Assembly (NCBI GenBank): GCA_964468425.1 | Contig: CAYXSZ010000013.1 | Location: 1-8,885 of the forward strand | Direction: 5' to 3' | Length of the DNA stretch: 8,885 nt | Source of the DNA: Candidatus Woesearchaeota archaeon | GTDB taxonomy: Archaea > Nanobdellota > Nanobdellia > Nanobdellales > Nanobdellaceae | In this document: in pieces, positions 80 through 8,885 of the stretch | Position numbering within the stretch: the stretch's first letter is position 1 | Layout of the letters: each line of letters starts with the position of its first letter | Position numbers and translations under genes: made by a program | The notes under the pieces: generated by a model | Databases searched by the model: none | What the model was told of the DNA's origin: nothing | The model's input: the letters and a program-made list of their open reading frames with translations, nothing else

Positions 80-166
<87 letters not shown>

Positions 167-197
167 CTTTAATTTTAAACAAACAAAACGAAATTCT

Positions 198-681: not shown

Positions 682-1128
682 TTAAAATCTGGTAACTACT
701 TCTCCACCAGCTTCCCGAATCTTCTCTATCGCGGATTCAGATGCGTAGTCCGTAACCACTCTTACTGGCACTGAAATTGTTCCCGATCCAAGCAATTTAT
801 TGTAACCTAATTCTTTTAAGTTTATAACTATTTTTCCATCCTCTTCTTTAAGATTTCCTTGAGACTTGAGCTTGAAAATTAAATCTTCTAGCTGATAAAG
901 GTTTATTTCTCGAACTTCTCTTCTTCTTGGTGGGACAAAGCCTCTTTTGTCCTTGAACTTTTCAGGATTTTCTTTAAGGATTTTCAGGAGCTTTTGCTTC
1001 TTAAACCTCCATCCGGCGTTTCCTCTTCCTCCCCTACATCCAGCTCCCCTGTTTCTATCGTTTTTACCCCTTCGAGCATAACGTTTTCCGAGGTATTTCT
1101 TGTACTTCTTTTTTCGTCGAACTACCAT
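682..1128 (-). CDS. rpl15: 50S ribosomal protein L15 (uL15)
   Basis: 148 aa. Contains the RGAGCRGGRGNAG glycine-rich motif, the ...LGYNKLLGSG... segment and C-terminal ...AIEKIREAGGEVV, all typical of archaeal uL15. The gap to eL19 downstream is 22 nt, so they are probably co-transcribed. Confidence 0.93.
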   Translation of the reverse strand: MVVRRKKKYKKYLGKRYARRGKNDRNRGAGCRGGRGNAGWRFKKQKLLKILKENPEKFKDKRGFVPPRRREVREINLYQLEDLIFKLKSQGNLKEEDGKIVINLKELGYNKLLGSGTISVPVRVVTDYASESAIEKIREAGGEVVTRF

Positions 1129-1260: not shown

Positions 1261-3045
1261 TTATTCCAAATACATTTCCAAGATTTCTACAACTTTTTCT
1301 TTTCCTAAAGCTGCAATCAAGCTTACTATCTTTGGTCCTGCGTCTTTGTTTATCAAAATTTTATAGAGTTTTTTGTAGAAGTCTTTAGGACTTGTCTTCT
1401 CTTTGATTATCAAATGTATTTTAGTTTGAACTTCCTCAAAATCTATTTTATCGAGAGTTTTTATGTATTCTGCGATTTCTCTCAGTAGATCTTTTTCAAT
1501 CTCTGTTAATTCTATATTCACTTTTTCTTCACCAAGTGAAATTCTTAAATATTCAGGAGCATAATTTCTTCCCCAGTAACCTGCCTTTCTTACACGATCC
1601 AACACTCTTAGGGCTTCTAAGAACCCAAGATTCCTTTCCAAGTGTCCAGTTCTCGTGAGAACTTCATCAATTTTTGAAATTGTTTCTTTAATGAGGTTCT
1701 CGTCAAGACTATCAAGAATTTCGATTGTTGGCTTATGAGTATTTACGAGAAGTTTCTCCGGAAGCAGAAGCTGACCAATTATTGCACAAAAGTTGTATGG
1801 AACTCTGAGTGGTTTTTTATTTTCAATTTTTCCGTGGGTTACCAAATAATAAACTGTGAGTTCTTCGTAGCTTGCGAGGTTTCTTTCTGAAACTGTTTTA
1901 GAATCTAAAGAATCTATCGAAAGCTCTCCCGACCTTATCAGTTCTATTGTTCGATAAACCTTTTCCTCGAGAGCGTCAAATTCATTTACTAATAAGTGAA
2001 TGTTTTTCAAATCTATATCCCGAGCTACTCCCGGTCTCTTTGTGTAGAAATAAAGAAACACTTCAGGTTCGATTATTTTCAAGAATTCCGTGATATTCCA
2101 AAGATTTCCCTTCGAGCCCGACATTTTCTTTCCATTTACAGTGAAGAACTCATACACTACTGGAATTGGAGCCTCATAGTTAAACACTTCTTTAGCTATC
2201 TTTGGAGAAACTTTCCAGGATGACGTATAATGATCTTTGCCCATCGGCTCAATTATTGTTTGGAAATAAACCCAATTTAGTGCCCATTCAACATACCAAT
2301 CGAGCTTTCCAAAGCGGATAGTTGTTTTCCCCTCATATCCACAACCGTTAACCGTGGTCTTTTTTAAATGTCTTTTTTCGCATTTATAAGAAACTTCTAG
2401 CGTTTCTGGATTGTAATCTGTTACTAAAGTAGTTCCAATTCTTCCACAGTTTTGACATATCGTCGAAAATGGATAATCTCTTATATGTTCCTTTAGCTCC
2501 TTATAAATCTCGTTAATCTTATCTTTTGATTCTAAAGCTCGCTTTGTAAGTTCTATCCATTTTCCAGAGTGGTAAAGAATATTTGGAGAATAATACTCGA
2601 ACTTAACGCTGTTTAACAAACCCAATCTTTGCAGTTCATTGAAGTAAACTGAAATAAAATGCTCTGACCAGGATGTGTGACATCCGAACGGATCTGGAAT
2701 TGCACATACAGGAAATCCGTCGTAGAGTTTTTCGTATTCTTCTTTGTTTTTGAATTCAATTAGGTTTCCTTCTTTATCGCAGATAATTGGAGGAAAACCT
2801 CTAATAGGGTCTCTGTCGTCTGAGGTGAAAACGACTCTTGACTTGTGACCTAAAACTTCGATGCACTTGGCGATGAAGCAAGATCTAATAACATCATTAG
2901 CATTTCCGATGTGAAGGACTCCCGTAGGAGTATTCGCACACCTGACAGTTATTATTTCTATGTTTTCTCTATTAGCTCGTTCAATTCCCTTCTTCGCAAC
3001 CTGGACAGCCCAAAAATTCGATCTCTCAAAAATTTCTTTCCACAT
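1261..3045 (-). CDS. lysS: Lysyl-tRNA synthetase, class I
   Basis: 594 aa. HIGH-type motif TGVLHIGN and KMSKS-type motif KMSGSKGN. PDPFGCHTSWSEHF, MGKDH, VPYNFCAIIGQL and C-terminal GPKIVSLIAALGKE parallel archaeal class I LysRS (Pyrococcus-type sequence, from memory). A Cys-containing insertion is present (CQNCG...CEKRH...GCG). Confidence 0.93.
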   Translation of the reverse strand: MWKEIFERSNFWAVQVAKKGIERANRENIEIITVRCANTPTGVLHIGNANDVIRSCFIAKCIEVLGHKSRVVFTSDDRDPIRGFPPIICDKEGNLIEFKNKEEYEKLYDGFPVCAIPDPFGCHTSWSEHFISVYFNELQRLGLLNSVKFEYYSPNILYHSGKWIELTKRALESKDKINEIYKELKEHIRDYPFSTICQNCGRIGTTLVTDYNPETLEVSYKCEKRHLKKTTVNGCGYEGKTTIRFGKLDWYVEWALNWVYFQTIIEPMGKDHYTSSWKVSPKIAKEVFNYEAPIPVVYEFFTVNGKKMSGSKGNLWNITEFLKIIEPEVFLYFYTKRPGVARDIDLKNIHLLVNEFDALEEKVYRTIELIRSGELSIDSLDSKTVSERNLASYEELTVYYLVTHGKIENKKPLRVPYNFCAIIGQLLLPEKLLVNTHKPTIEILDSLDENLIKETISKIDEVLTRTGHLERNLGFLEALRVLDRVRKAGYWGRNYAPEYLRISLGEEKVNIELTEIEKDLLREIAEYIKTLDKIDFEEVQTKIHLIIKEKTSPKDFYKKLYKILINKDAGPKIVSLIAALGKEKVVEILEMYLE

Positions 3046-3080
3046 AATAATCTTTAAATCGATTCAGTTTAAAAGAGTTT
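3046..3080. promoter_or_regulatory. Interleaved divergent promoters for lysS (minus) and the C/D sRNA (plus)
   Basis: CTTTAAAT (3052-3059) lies about 26 nt upstream of 3081 on the plus strand. GTTTAAAAG (3067-3075, minus CTTTTAAAC) lies about 26 nt upstream of the lysS ATG at 3045. Confidence 0.5.
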
Positions 3081-3135
3081 GTGTGAGGAATACGATGTCG
3101 TCTGAGTTGTGAAGAGGAGCTCTCGCCCTGATCAT
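3081..3135 (+). ncRNA. Box C/D sRNA (2'-O-methylation guide), dual guide
   Basis: Order of elements: C box GTGAGGA (3083-3089), 12 nt, D' box CTGA (3102-3105), GTT, C' box GTGAAGA (3109-3115), 12 nt, D box CTGA (3128-3131). Both spacers are exactly 12 nt. The box deviations occur only at position 5. The region is a GC-rich island in an AT-rich spacer, with a TATA box at about -26 and a T5 run at 3145-3149. The reverse strand lacks the pattern. Confidence 0.75.
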
Positions 3136-3764
3136 ATCTTAAGCTTTTTCTTTAACTCCCGAAACTTATCTTCTGTTGGATAGAAATCTTTGTAGTAATT
3201 CATTTTATCCAGTAACCAGTTTAAAATAACTATAGTTTGAGACGAAAAGTAAGCCAAATCTCCAAGAGACACAAACGTTGATTTATCCTTTAGCCATTTT
3301 AATTCTTTTTTTGGAATTCCGAGAAAGTCTCCTATAACAAAAACGGGATTTTTGATTTCAACATCTTCTATGAACTCGCCAGATTTGTCTAATACATAAA
3401 CGTTCCTTCCGCTTTTAGCGTAATCCTCGATGAGCTCTCTGAATGATCGTTTTTCTACAGTAACTCCAGGAAATGGGTTAGTGATACTTTTTCTCCTAAA
3501 TTTTTTAAGGGACGATGCCAAGAGAGAAGTAACATCCTTCTTTGACCATGGAGTTCTTGGATTTGACTCGATTTTCAAACGAATTGGAGGAATTGGTGGA
3601 CCGTTCAAGGATAAATCAAATACGACATTCTTTCTTAGTCCATTTGAAATAAAAAAAGCGTGAATCAACGAATTGACAAGAACATCTATCCTTCCGGATC
3701 TGTATATATCTTTGAACTCTCCGTCAGTTCTAACTGTGTTTGAATAAAAGACGAAAATCCGCAT
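3132..3764 (-). CDS. trmY: tRNA (pseudouridine54-N1)-methyltransferase TrmY (SPOUT, DUF358/COG1901)
   Basis: 210 aa. GRIDVLVNSLIHAFFISNGLRKNV...LNGPPIPP.RLKIE...GVTVEKRSF.ELIEDY...VYVLDKSGE...NPVFVIGDFLGIP..E...L parallels the Mj1640/TrmY family pattern as I recall it. The size is typical. Confidence 0.75.
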   Translation of the reverse strand: MRIFVFYSNTVRTDGEFKDIYRSGRIDVLVNSLIHAFFISNGLRKNVVFDLSLNGPPIPPIRLKIESNPRTPWSKKDVTSLLASSLKKFRRKSITNPFPGVTVEKRSFRELIEDYAKSGRNVYVLDKSGEFIEDVEIKNPVFVIGDFLGIPKKELKWLKDKSTFVSLGDLAYFSSQTIVILNWLLDKMNYYKDFYPTEDKFRELKKKLKI

Positions 3765-7992: not shown

Positions 7993-8885
7993 GTCTGCTG
8001 TCCACTGAAGGTCTGAGCCACCTTCCCGCCAAGGTGAGGCGGCAACATCGAAAAAGTCTGATAGGAAAAGGGAGAGTATTGAGTTACCTGAATTTGGGGG
8101 GAATACATAGTAGAGTAAACTGTGGGCCATCCAGAAAAGTACTCCGGTCTGAATAAGGCTGAATGGTAAGAAGTCTCCCCAGGAGGGACATAACCACACA
8201 GCTCGAGAATATAAGAGAGCCCTTTCTTATAATTTCTATAGTAATGGGAATACCACCCCCCTACTTCCTGTATCATGTATACCCCTTCTTTTGAAAGGAC
8301 GTCTCTCAACTCTTCTAACTCTGCTTTTGTGATATCGCTCCAATCCATTCCCGGGATCATATGAGAATCTTCCCCATACATCGCTTCGGCAACATGGACA
8401 TGCTTTATGTACGGTTTTAGTTGTCTGATCCAATTAAGAATGTCTTCTTTTGTGTAACCTTCTTTGATAAAGCCCTTTAAGTGCGCTATATCGACATTAG
8501 CTCCAATTTTTTCATTAACGAATTTGTCAACGCTCCCGAACTTTTTTTCAATTATACTTTTAATGTCTGGATTCTTATTAATAACCTCTTTTAGAGCTTC
8601 TCTAGCATTTTCAACGAATTTTATCATCTCATCAGGTCTAGTTCCCACTAAACCAGCGTAAGAATTTTCGATTACCAATTGAGGAAGAACCTTTTCAAGT
8701 TTCTCGGGATCCTTAAGCCAGTCGGGGTGATATTCTTTGAGATACGAAATTACCTTTTGATAAGCTTCTGCAATAGTGTTTTTAGCTACCTGAGGAGCGA
8801 ATTCCGGGACAGGTTTGACAAACGAAATTTTTTTCTGAATAAAAATCTTACCAAGCTCGTTCGTAAGCTCTCTATAGTACTCTAC
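7989..8885 (-). CDS. Xylose-isomerase-like / AP-endonuclease-2 (endonuclease IV-like) TIM-barrel protein, 5'-truncated by the window, with an atypical low-complexity C-terminal tail
   Basis: The listed ORF begins at a TTG, but the frame stays open to base 8885 (upstream translation VEYYRELTNELGKIF...LPQ). The motif series VIENSYAG / NVDIAHLKGFIKEGY / HVHVAEAMYGEDSHMIPG / YMIQEVGG parallels the metal-ligand motifs of endonuclease IV-type TIM barrels (lEN, DtcH, HlND...H, ilE). The functional call is tentative. Confidence 0.5.
   Translation of the reverse strand, partial: VEYYRELTNELGKIFIQKKISFVKPVPEFAPQVAKNTIAEAYQKVISYLKEYHPDWLKDPEKLEKVLPQLVIENSYAGLVGTRPDEMIKFVENAREALKEVINKNPDIKSIIEKKFGSVDKFVNEKIGANVDIAHLKGFIKEGYTKEDILNWIRQLKPYIKHVHVAEAMYGEDSHMIPGMDWSDITKAELEELRDVLSKEGVYMIQEVGGWYSHYYRNYKKGLSYILELCGYVPPGETSYHSALFRPEYFSGWPTVYSTMYSPQIQVTQYSPFSYQTFSMLPPHLGGKVAQTFSGQQT

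Follow-up and report, generated by a model that had tools for sequence, protein, structure and literature searches.

A probable box C/D sRNA upstream of lysS in a Nanopusillaceae-type nanoarchaeon, with a guide complementary to 23S rRNA helix 89

Introduction

The archaeal box C/D small RNAs (sRNAs) that lie closest to the element considered here have been described in three organisms. Nanoarchaeum equitans, which belongs to the same phylum-level lineage, has 26 C/D sRNAs mapped by RNA-seq; these often abut or overlap RNA-modification genes, and in small RNA genes of this organism a box A, TTTAAA, precedes the transcription start by 26 nt (Randau 2012, PMC3491384). In Sulfolobus acidocaldarius, the published target of the D guide of sR17 is 23S A2743, and in Ignicoccus hospitalis, sR204 is a double guide on the same two rRNA segments that are discussed below (Dennis 2015, PMC4644070). 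The latter study describes double guides as having targets within 100 nt and as tolerating G:U pairs, reports that many archaeal guides aim at tRNA or 5S rRNA, and states that a pair other than Watson-Crick at position N+5 gives binding without methylation; the origin of shared guides was left open there (Dennis 2015, PMC4644070).

Here we analyze a short plus-strand element in an 8,885-nt stretch of Candidatus Woesearchaeota contig CAYXSZ010000013.1, referred to as the window. A preliminary description, made by reading the letters, had proposed a box C/D sRNA hidden between two minus-strand genes. We consider it highly probable that positions 3081-3133 (+) encode such an sRNA, with a D guide for the equivalent of E. 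coli A2469 in 23S helix 89 and a D' guide that would dock on 23S positions 2501-2508. This assessment draws directly on the architecture of the element, its statistical significance, its conservation, its complementarity to archaeal helix 89, and the identity of the site with published predictions.

Results

Two ORFs on the minus strand, at 1261-3045 and 3132-3764, leave an 86-bp spacer between them, as the preliminary description had noted. The first encodes a class I lysyl-tRNA synthetase (LysRS, gene lysS; Pfam PF01921, E=3e-79) and is the divergent neighbor of the element; the second is a trmY-type tRNA (pseudouridine54-N1)-methyltransferase gene (Pfam PF04013) and is its convergent neighbor. 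On the plus strand, box C, GUGAGGA (3083-3089; RUGAUGA with G at position 5), is followed by the 12-nt D' guide AUACGAUGUCGU (DNA ATACGATGTCGT; 3090-3101), box D', CUGA (3102-3105), the 3-nt D'-C' linker GUU (3106-3108), box C', GUGAAGA (3109-3115), the 12-nt D guide GGAGCUCUCGCC (DNA GGAGCTCTCGCC; 3116-3127), and box D, CUGA (3128-3131), directly followed by the trmY stop codon (plus-strand TCA, 3132-3134). The spacer lengths of 12 and 12 nt fall within the 10- to 12-nt rule of the class. Both C-type boxes deviate from RUGAUGA at position 5, and the G-A dinucleotides required for sheared pairs and the k-turn are intact, in agreement with the preliminary description; a check of the sequence also placed the boxes, both guides, the GTT linker, the upstream CTTTAAAT, and the downstream T5 run exactly where it had put them.

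The mature sRNA is predicted to be about 51 to 57 nt long and to occupy 3081-3133 (+), its ends being estimated from Rfam alignments (3079-3133), a match to model R1 (3084-3132; see below), and the conserved island in alignments A1 and A2. A putative box A/TATA element, TTTAAA (3055-3060, +), lies within CTTTAAAT (3054-3061) and would place the transcription start near G3081. In the L132 and L138 orthologues described below, a TTTAAA likewise precedes box C by 20 to 33 nt, which is a weak indication of a promoter because the spacers are AT-rich. A second motif, TTTAAAA (3070-3076, -), about 27 nt upstream of the lysS ATG at 3045, probably serves the divergent lysS as its TATA box, to judge by its sequence and position. 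The T5 run (3145-3149, +), which falls within the 3'-terminal part of trmY, coded on the other strand, may serve as a transcription stop; a clean T-run is not kept in the L132 and L138 orthologues. An island of ~51% GC lies inside the 86-bp spacer. There is no terminal stem, as the preliminary description had observed, with at most 2 bp possible (G3081-C3133 and U3080-A3134); that description had counted this as a weakness, but it is no objection in Nanoarchaeota, because the C/D sRNAs of N. equitans have ends that "are not base-paired" (Randau 2012, PMC3491384). Folding of the region gave a minimum free energy that falls short of significance (z=-1.8), which is what a C/D sRNA lacking Watson-Crick structure should show.

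The strict pattern RTGANGA-N12-CTGA-N2-8-RTGANGA-N12-CTGA has a single match in the window and none in 3,000 dinucleotide-preserving shuffles, both strands being searched; a much looser C/D pattern was present in 1.8% of shuffles. Model R1, built solely from 25 experimentally (RNA-seq) mapped N. equitans C/D sRNAs, scored the candidate at 14.6 bits (E=2e-4) and had no other significant match in the window; the runner-up site there scored 4.7 bits (E=0.29), and the L132 orthologue was detected with E=9e-7. Nine archaeal C/D families of Rfam, including sR2, sR17, sR3, sR14, and sR35 (RF01139, RF01144, RF01133, and others), aligned over their full length and anchored on the boxes at 3079-3133 (+), all with scores below gathering. 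The best Rfam match of the window was sR2 (RF01139), with 20.3 bits against a gathering threshold of 42 bits, and sR17 (RF01144) gave 19.6 bits for the window and 29.6 bits for the L132 orthologue against a threshold of 36 bits. Each of these families is defined by its guides, and those of the window sRNA differ, so that it lies outside every matched family; membership of Rfam sR17 itself was considered and rejected, its score being below gathering and the Rfam consensus guide being different.

Orthologues were found in two related Nanopusillaceae-type lineages, L132/L133 and L138, each divergent from and upstream of lysS. The L132 orthologue reads ATGATGA-CTACGATGTCGT-CTGA-GTT-ATGATGA-AGAGCTCTCGAA-CTGA, with fully canonical boxes and spacers of 12/12, and the L138 orthologue reads ATGAAGA-TAGCGATGTCGT-CTGA-CGAC-ATGACGA-GGGGCTCTCGTAA-CAGA, with spacers of 12/13; the 13-nt D spacer of L138 would move N+5 to G2468. 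Box D' is identical in both, and the linker is GUU in L132 and CGAC in L138. The box design (12/3-4/12-13) and the guide cores are thus kept in both related lineages, the 9-nt core of the D' guide, CGAUGUCGU, is conserved in all three, and the sRNA stands out as a conserved island from an AT-rich flanking spacer that cannot be aligned between lineages. Scoring by a model and conservation in relatives had both been proposed as checks on the preliminary description, and both came out in its favor.

Linkage to lysS is common to the three lineages, with the element on the opposite strand each time and at different distances from the lysS ATG (36, 229, and 56 nt across the three copies). Adjacency to trmY is lost in L138, where the element itself is intact, and the TrmY proteins of the three sRNA-bearing lineages share 67 to 74% identity. 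The downstream neighbors of trmY differ in loci L006-L009 and L134-L141, and an orthologue beside trmY in reference genomes was sought and discarded, synteny being broken in L006-L010, L134-L137, and L139-L141. The element tracks lysS, not trmY; the lysS-trmY setting given in the preliminary description describes the window correctly, but as a linkage it extends to lysS and not to trmY. In L001, an apparent gene-free stretch of 1.5 kb is an uncalled 427-aa ORF.

These observations bear on whether the motifs might have come together by chance, or might act in cis on the flanking genes and not as a stand-alone guide RNA. As a cis-element, they could belong to the promoter or 5' region of lysS, to the terminator or 3' UTR of trmY, or to an L7Ae-binding k-turn of an mRNA; their location in a promoter-containing spacer, directly against the trmY stop codon, would suit such a role, and L7Ae is reported to bind k-turns in some archaeal mRNAs (PMC5539422), which offers a precedent. 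The boxes, however, read on the plus strand only, opposite to the minus strand that carries lysS and trmY; their distance from the lysS start codon is not fixed (see above), and the L138 element has remained intact without trmY. Chance is opposed by the absence of the architecture from all 3,000 shuffles, and both forms of this explanation by a guide that is perfectly complementary to rRNA (see below). We regard either form as extremely improbable.

The window copy might instead be decaying or weakly functional, having lost, at position 5 of its two C-type boxes, the U of the canonical motif and, with it, some capacity for assembly. Its boxes, GUGAGGA/GUGAAGA, do depart from the ATGATGA/ATGATGA of L132, and its R1 and Rfam scores are lower than those of the L132 copy. 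The sheared-pair G-A dinucleotides are intact, however, and position-5 variants are common in expressed sRNAs, with UGAAGA in N. equitans and UGAGGA in published sRNAs of I. hospitalis and M. kandleri. Moreover, five independent metagenome contigs from different samples share an identical 49-nt core, and the guides are intact, the D guide being a perfect 12-mer complement. The contig is carried by ENA ERZ23491583, JGI 3300041922, 3300007771, and 3300028838, and run ERR2021503. Decay therefore seems to us very unlikely.

The D guide is complementary at 12/12 positions to GGCGAGAGCUCC in helix 89 of the 23S rRNA of other archaea (E. coli 2465-2476), the region that the preliminary description had tentatively suggested for this target. 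The N+5 nucleotide is the equivalent of E. coli A2469, with A opposite U in a Watson-Crick pair; a guide of this class is expected to form at least 9 contiguous pairs. Shuffled guides attain a 12/12 complement with P=4.6e-4. The target pattern, combined with an anchor in the peptidyl-transferase center (PTC), was found in at least 120 metagenome contigs, every one with a 24-nt gap, in the context GGGAUAACAG-N10-target-N24-CGAUGUCGGCU (the upstream part also as GGGATAACAG-N10-target); the contigs that carry it are archaeal LSU rRNA. When 116 23S contigs with the perfect target were classified against seven references, none was Nanoarchaeum-like. rRNA contigs were also sought through protein-database queries, using pseudo-peptides from N. 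equitans 23S and spurious ORFs on rRNA genes; this route reached Bathyarchaeia (L142), Nitrososphaerales (L143), and two unassigned contigs (L144 and L145), the host 23S not being among them, and the target core CGAGAGCUC is kept in all of these contigs. N. equitans, the sole sequenced relative with a published 23S, reads GGCGAAAGUUCC at the helix 89 site, which gives an A.C mismatch with the D guide beside the target nucleotide and one G.U pair. The same target is presumed in the 23S of the host itself. A literature search for experimentally mapped 2'-O-methyl groups in archaeal helix 89 returned nothing relevant, and no convincing complement to either guide turned up in the window's three tRNAs or in the tRNAs of related loci.

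The D' guide presents a different picture. The perfect target that the preliminary description had predicted for it, ACGACAUCGUAU, was found nowhere in the tRNAs, related loci, and archaeal rRNA searched, with 0 matches of at least 10 Watson-Crick pairs among the three tRNAs of the window, in ~120 kb of Nanopusillaceae-type loci, or in ~120 archaeal rRNA contigs. A search for seeds of 7 to 8 nt in the 16S and 23S of seven reference archaea, N. equitans among them, gave one 7-mer, GACAUCG, in a variable hairpin of M. kandleri 23S. The search of both guides against rRNA and tRNA, which had been suggested at the outset, thus succeeded for the D guide (12/12, in the 23S of other archaea) and yielded no perfect match for the D' guide. 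A scan of a viral collection with a signature of the D' core returned four chance matches, none of them with C/D architecture.

What the D' guide can pair with is the universal 23S strand C2501-G2508, through 6 Watson-Crick and 2 G.U pairs, and N+5 then falls on U2504. On 2501-2508, the D' guides of the window, L132, and L138 all adopt the register known from Ignicoccus sR204. The core CGAUGUCG is the same in sense as the universal strand 2501-2508, and the tandem U.G/G.U falls exactly at N+5/N+6. The duplex is short, 8 bp including the 2 G.U pairs; its energy of -10.3 kcal/mol is attained by 3.3% of shuffled guides and drops to -1.6 kcal/mol at 75°C. The idea of this pairing arose post hoc. 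Docking of the conserved D' guide on the neighboring PTC strand C2501-G2508 is, on the evidence of complementarity and register, its most likely role. Because U2504 would face G, the D' arm may merely hold the rRNA, in a chaperone-type contact, and not methylate it.

Alternatively, the sRNA could be genuine but have another, perfect target for its D' guide, 5'-ACGACAUCGUA-3', methylated on its fifth nucleotide, C. This target would sit in a lineage-specific segment of the host rRNA, in a tRNA, in 5S, or in another stable RNA, so that ACGACAUCG would be expected in some stable RNA of the host, and the likeness to the PTC strand would arise incidentally from the D' core being nearly palindromic. 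The strict conservation of the 9-nt core in three lineages, despite the divergence of their TrmY proteins, implies selection for a target; methylation normally needs a Watson-Crick pair at N+5, and tRNA or 5S is aimed at by many archaeal guides (Dennis 2015, PMC4644070). A perfect duplex would also be far more stable (-16.7 versus -10.3 kcal/mol). Against it stand the negative searches for matches and seeds given above, the M. kandleri 7-mer excepted, and the fact that the PTC pairing register is exactly that of the published sR204, whose other guide aims at helix 89. A hidden target of this kind is possible, but we do not think it probable.

Discussion

Most likely, to go by the sequence comparisons, the spacer sRNA is real but ordinary and would direct methylation of one helix 89 adenosine beside the center where peptide bonds are formed. 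A compact sRNA of a Nanopusillaceae-type nanoarchaeon would be transcribed from ~3081-3133 (+), divergently from lysS. By analogy with characterized archaeal C/D RNPs, box C/D should form a k-turn and box C'/D' a k-loop, and the two would be bound by L7Ae, Nop5, and fibrillarin. In the assembled RNP, the D guide would pair with the 5' strand and loop of helix 89, 5'-GGCGAGAGCUCC-3', and fibrillarin would 2'-O-methylate the nucleotide opposite the guide base that lies fifth before box D, the equivalent of A2469. The D' guide would dock 35 nt downstream, on C2501-G2508, with its 6 Watson-Crick pairs and 2 central G.U pairs, which would make this a "double-guide" sRNA like Ignicoccus sR204.

A further proposal is that the D' guide has become a binding-only arm. 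The RNP would then methylate A2469 while transiently clamping U2504-G2505, 35 nt away, which would stay unmodified; in the reduced Nanopusillaceae, a double guide like Ignicoccus sR204, able to methylate, would have evolved into a dedicated PTC-folding chaperone contact. We offer this as speculation that is rather unlikely to hold. The conserved, wobble-bearing D' arm provides a concrete and testable case for the proposed "binding without methylation" by double guides.

The locus leaves the current understanding of C/D sRNAs unchanged; it adds one RNA gene missed by annotation to a DPANN lineage that is uncultured and genome-reduced. Protein-only gene calling misses such genes, and here nothing but an 86-bp spacer containing a ~51% GC island pointed to one.

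Among known systems, the N. equitans C/D sRNAs resemble the window sRNA in being compact (52 to 60 nt), with 12-nt guides, a 2- to 4-nt D'-C' linker, and no terminal stem; GTGAAGA/ATGAAGA (UGAAGA) box variants are common among the 26 mapped sRNAs, and TTTAAA box A lies ~26 nt upstream of some of the genes (Randau 2012, PMC3491384). They differ in that neither window guide occurs in any of the 26, and N. equitans, with GGCGAAAGUUCC in its 23S, has no sRNA for the helix 89 site. Sulfolobus acidocaldarius belongs to another phylum, yet the D guide of its sR17, CGAGCUCUCGCA followed by CUGA, has the same 10-nt core, GAGCUCUCGC, and the same register as the window guide (Dennis 2015, PMC4644070); its target A2743 corresponds to E. 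coli A2469 and is the same nucleotide. Its D' guide, CUAAAAAACCGG, is unrelated and without a predicted target, and its linker is 5 nt long. Ignicoccus sR204 targets G2744 (E. coli G2470, in helix 89) with its D guide and U2778 (E. coli U2504) with its D' guide, the latter in a register identical to that of the window D' guide on C2501-G2508. Unlike the nanoarchaeal D' guide, with its U-G/G-U at two central positions, the sR204 D' guide is a perfect antisense with A-U at N+5; sR204 also differs in its long terminal stem, its degenerate D and D' boxes, and a D register shifted by 1 nt (Dennis 2015, PMC4644070). A five-way alignment showed no informative similarity beyond the boxes and the guide core. 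A helix 89 guide is kept by at least three Nanopusillaceae-type lineages, and the site is also guided in Sulfolobus and Ignicoccus, which supports methylation and chaperoning of the PTC region as a recurrent need in archaeal ribosome assembly.

Structure of the lysS-trmY spacer

The 86-bp spacer between two minus-strand ORFs, a class I lysyl-tRNA synthetase (lysS, 1261-3045) and a TrmY-type RNA methyltransferase (trmY, 3132-3764; PF04013), both assigned with Pfam, is occupied by a compact plus-strand element. Box C (GTGAGGA, 3083-3089) is followed by the D' guide ATACGATGTCGT (3090-3101), box D' (CTGA, 3102-3105), a GTT linker, box C' (GTGAAGA, 3109-3115), the D guide GGAGCTCTCGCC (3116-3127), and box D (CTGA, 3128-3131); CTTTAAAT occupies 3054-3061, and a T5 run spans 3145-3149. 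A preliminary description had proposed a box C/D sRNA at 3081-3149, and every box, guide, and flanking motif that it listed is present. The trmY stop codon directly adjoins box D, and an sRNA extended at its 3' end would therefore run antisense to the 3' end of trmY. Two opposed TTTAAA motifs (within 3054-3076), 15 nt apart, make the spacer resemble a back-to-back promoter pair: TTTAAA at 3055-3060 predicts an sRNA start near G3081, and TTTAAAA at 3070-3076, read in the opposite direction, precedes the lysS ATG by ∼27 nt. Their spacing would suit a pair of divergent TATA boxes, serving the sRNA on the plus strand and a leaderless lysS on the minus strand.

By analogy with known box C/D sRNAs, sheared G.A pairs would shape boxes C and D into a k-turn and boxes C' and D' into a k-loop. 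The fifth nucleotide of box C would face U2 of box D in a G.U rather than a U.U pair, and that of box C' would make an A-U pair with box D'. The sRNA would be expected to recruit L7Ae, Nop5, and fibrillarin, with fibrillarin methylating the 2'-OH of the nucleotide paired to the fifth guide base upstream of the box (N+5). A terminal stem is indeed missing, as the preliminary description had noted, but this is normal in the clade (Randau 2012) and is not the weakness it was taken to be.

Pattern and profile searches

The pattern RTGANGA-N12-CTGA-N2-8-RTGANGA-N12-CTGA, searched on both strands, matched once in the window and in 0 of 3000 dinucleotide-preserving shuffles; a much looser variant was matched in 1.8% of shuffles. 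A check against C/D models had been suggested at the outset. When the spacer was scanned permissively with Rfam, nine archaeal C/D sRNA families aligned full-length at 3079-3133(+) with E values of 0.013 or higher, all nine below gathering, as expected because these families are defined by their guides. A profile built solely from 25 non-permuted, RNA-seq-mapped Nanoarchaeum equitans C/D sRNAs (R1; Randau 2012 sequences, alignment A3) gave one significant match in the window, at 3084-3132(+) (14.6 bits, E = 2e-4); the second-ranked site scored 4.7 bits (E = 0.29).

Conservation in related genomes

Five metagenome contigs, of up to 14 kb, encode the TrmY protein, and each carries an identical 49-nt sRNA core. 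Among reference genomes, Nanopusillaceae and "Woesearchaeota" MAGs come nearest (TrmY identity, 61-70%), and the best TrmY relative among 5.8 billion proteins is 74% identical, which marks the host as a nanoarchaeon that is uncultured and sparsely sampled. Gene order downstream of trmY is disrupted in most relatives, and an sRNA orthologue is kept in two lineages. In the first (locus L132, TrmY 74% identical; the same sequence recurs in L133), the trmY-lysS spacer contains ATGATGA-CTACGATGTCGT-CTGA-GTT-ATGATGA-AGAGCTCTCGAA-CTGA. Both the C and C' boxes of this copy are canonical, the spacing is 12/3/12 as in the window, the D' guide is identical at 11 of 12 positions, and the D-guide core GAGCUCUCG is retained; it scores 29.6 bits with Rfam sR17 and E = 9e-7 with R1. 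In the second (L138, TrmY 67% identical), ATGAAGA-TAGCGATGTCGT-CTGA-CGAC-ATGACGA-GGGGCTCTCGTAA-CAGA is found on the strand opposite lysS, 56 nt upstream of that gene, trmY having relocated 3.6 kb away. Boxes and spacing, whose conservation the preliminary description had listed for checking, can thus be followed into relatives. Linkage of the sRNA to lysS holds in all three lineages at distances of 36, 229, and 56 nt, a variation that disfavors a lysS promoter element. The sRNA forms a conserved island, the remaining spacer being alignable merely as AT-rich noise, and the lineages differ at box positions 1 and 5, where change is tolerated, and at the ends of the guides. The trmY-lysS spacer measures 86 bp in the window (3046-3131) versus 299 bp in the nearest relative (L132:1716-2014).

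The D guide and helix 89

A metagenome collection was scanned with GGCGAGAGCTCC-N14-40-CGATGTCGGCT, the predicted D target followed by the universal segment of the peptidyl-transferase centre (PTC). The pattern was found in at least 120 contigs, with exactly 24 nt between the two segments in each match listed and the context GGGATAACAG-N10-GGCGAGAGCTCC-TATCGACCCCGCGG...; sampled loci are archaeal LSU rRNA according to Rfam. Numbering was by alignment to a real E. coli 23S; since the copy used is annotated at 2898 nt, A2451 and A2503-U2506 served as fixed points. Target nucleotides 1-12 match E. coli positions 2465-2476, which make up the 5' strand and loop of helix 89 (H89), the complement being known from other archaea's 23S, and the N+5 nucleotide is A2469; the resemblance to H89 proposed in the preliminary description was correct. 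A shuffled D guide finds a 12/12 complement within a 23S of 2980 nt with a probability of 4.6e-4.

No Nanoarchaeum-like 23S was present among 116 classified contigs with a perfect D target, and a search for nanoarchaeal rRNA via spurious ORFs reached Bathyarchaeia (L142), Nitrososphaerales (L143), and the rRNA-bearing contigs L144 and L145, all four of which keep the H89 core CGAGAGCUC. N. equitans 23S reads GGCGAAAGUUCC at this site, and N. equitans has no equivalent sRNA; the target thus varies within the phylum. The 13-nt D spacer of L138 moves N+5 to G2468. Lineage-specific guide ends may track changes in the H89 stem.

L145, from an archaeon with an AT-rich genome, has the H89 variant GCGCCCGAGAGCUCAAAUCGACGGCGCGG (740-800, minus strand), in which the loop core is retained and stem bases covary, GGG/CCC to CCC/GGC. 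Public protein collections contain P0045, P0046, P0048, and P0049 (170-181 aa), spurious ORFs antisense to the 3' part of archaeal 23S (L142:7448-7975, L143:3968-4480, L144:366-911, and L145:297-809), in which the peptide …SRHRGTKPRGRWELSPAT… is H89 and the PTC reverse-translated; P0047 (203 aa), known here as a protein alone, is a sense-frame counterpart.

The D' guide

Adjoining box D', the 9-nt D' core CGAUGUCGU does not vary among the three lineages and must therefore be under selection. The perfect target predicted for this guide, ACGACAUCGUA, was absent from the window tRNAs, ∼120 kb of Nanopusillaceae-type DNA, the ∼120 archaeal rRNA contigs examined, and the 16S and 23S sequences published for seven archaea, N. 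equitans among them. The core comes close to being its own reverse complement and is sense-identical to the universal PTC strand C2501-G2508, with which six Watson-Crick and two central G.U pairs are possible; U2504 is then at N+5, facing G. The stability of this duplex is modest: -10.3 kcal/mol at 37°C, a value attained by 3.3% of shuffled guides against a 28-nt segment, and no more than -1.6 kcal/mol at 75°C. Dennis et al. (2015; PMC4644070) define a "double guide" sRNA as having two targets ≤100 nt apart, allow G:U pairs, and argue that a guide whose N+5 pair is not Watson-Crick binds its target but does not direct methylation; from these points we infer that the D' arm probably docks 35 nt away from the D target, on the PTC strand. 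A different, perfectly complementary hidden target for the D' guide is a possible but less likely alternative.

The core ACGAUGUCGU (3092-3101) is also self-complementary, with eight Watson-Crick and two G.U pairs, and shares its sense sequence with CGAUGUCG, the universal 23S strand at E. coli 2501-2508; in principle, one sRNA molecule could dimerise with another via this core.

Further candidates and neighbouring sequence

Six more compact C/D-type sRNA candidates, with 12-nt guides and 2-4-nt linkers, were found by regex and R1 (E, 9e-8 to 0.014) in related Nanopusillaceae-type loci, at L006:12639-12694(+), L006:1226-1283(-), L008:3518-3574(+), L134:17775-17830(+), L134:5645-5702(-), and L139:9498-9554(+); none of the six is in the gene-call tables. 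L006:12639 and L134:17775 are orthologues with an identical D' guide, TTCTCCACGGGA, and D guides ACCCTCGATGGA and GCCCTCGATGGA. ARAGORN placed a tRNA-Ser(CGA) at window 82-167 (8567-8652 of the source contig, L001). Gathering-threshold Rfam scans of the full window and L001 missed it, a filter artefact, as a short stretch with laxer filters gave 50.1 bits against a gathering score of 29. A 427-aa ORF at L001:8700-9983(+) is missing from the contig's precomputed gene table, so the region appeared gene-free; it gave no Rfam match except tRNA-Ser and no significant repeats.

Comparison with published guides

The D guide of Sulfolobus acidocaldarius sR17, CGAGCUCUCGCA followed by CUGA (Dennis et al. 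2015 supplements), shares a 10-nt core with the window D guide in identical register, and Ignicoccus hospitalis sR204 has the same D-guide core (PMC4644070). The target table there assigns sR17 D to 23S A2743, sR204 D to G2744, and sR204 D' to U2778; with alignment columns numbered 2700 + index and E. coli A2451 at index 25, these are E. coli A2469, G2470, and U2504. The D guides of sR17 and the window sRNA are therefore predicted to target the same nucleotide, A2469. On sequence grounds we take the element to be a true box C/D sRNA gene, absent from the annotation and of a well-known kind, whose principal target site is already predicted for Crenarchaeota. It is unusual solely in its conserved D' arm with wobble pairs: the sR204 D' guide is perfectly antisense to the PTC strand, whereas the window D' guide can pair in the same register but with G.U.
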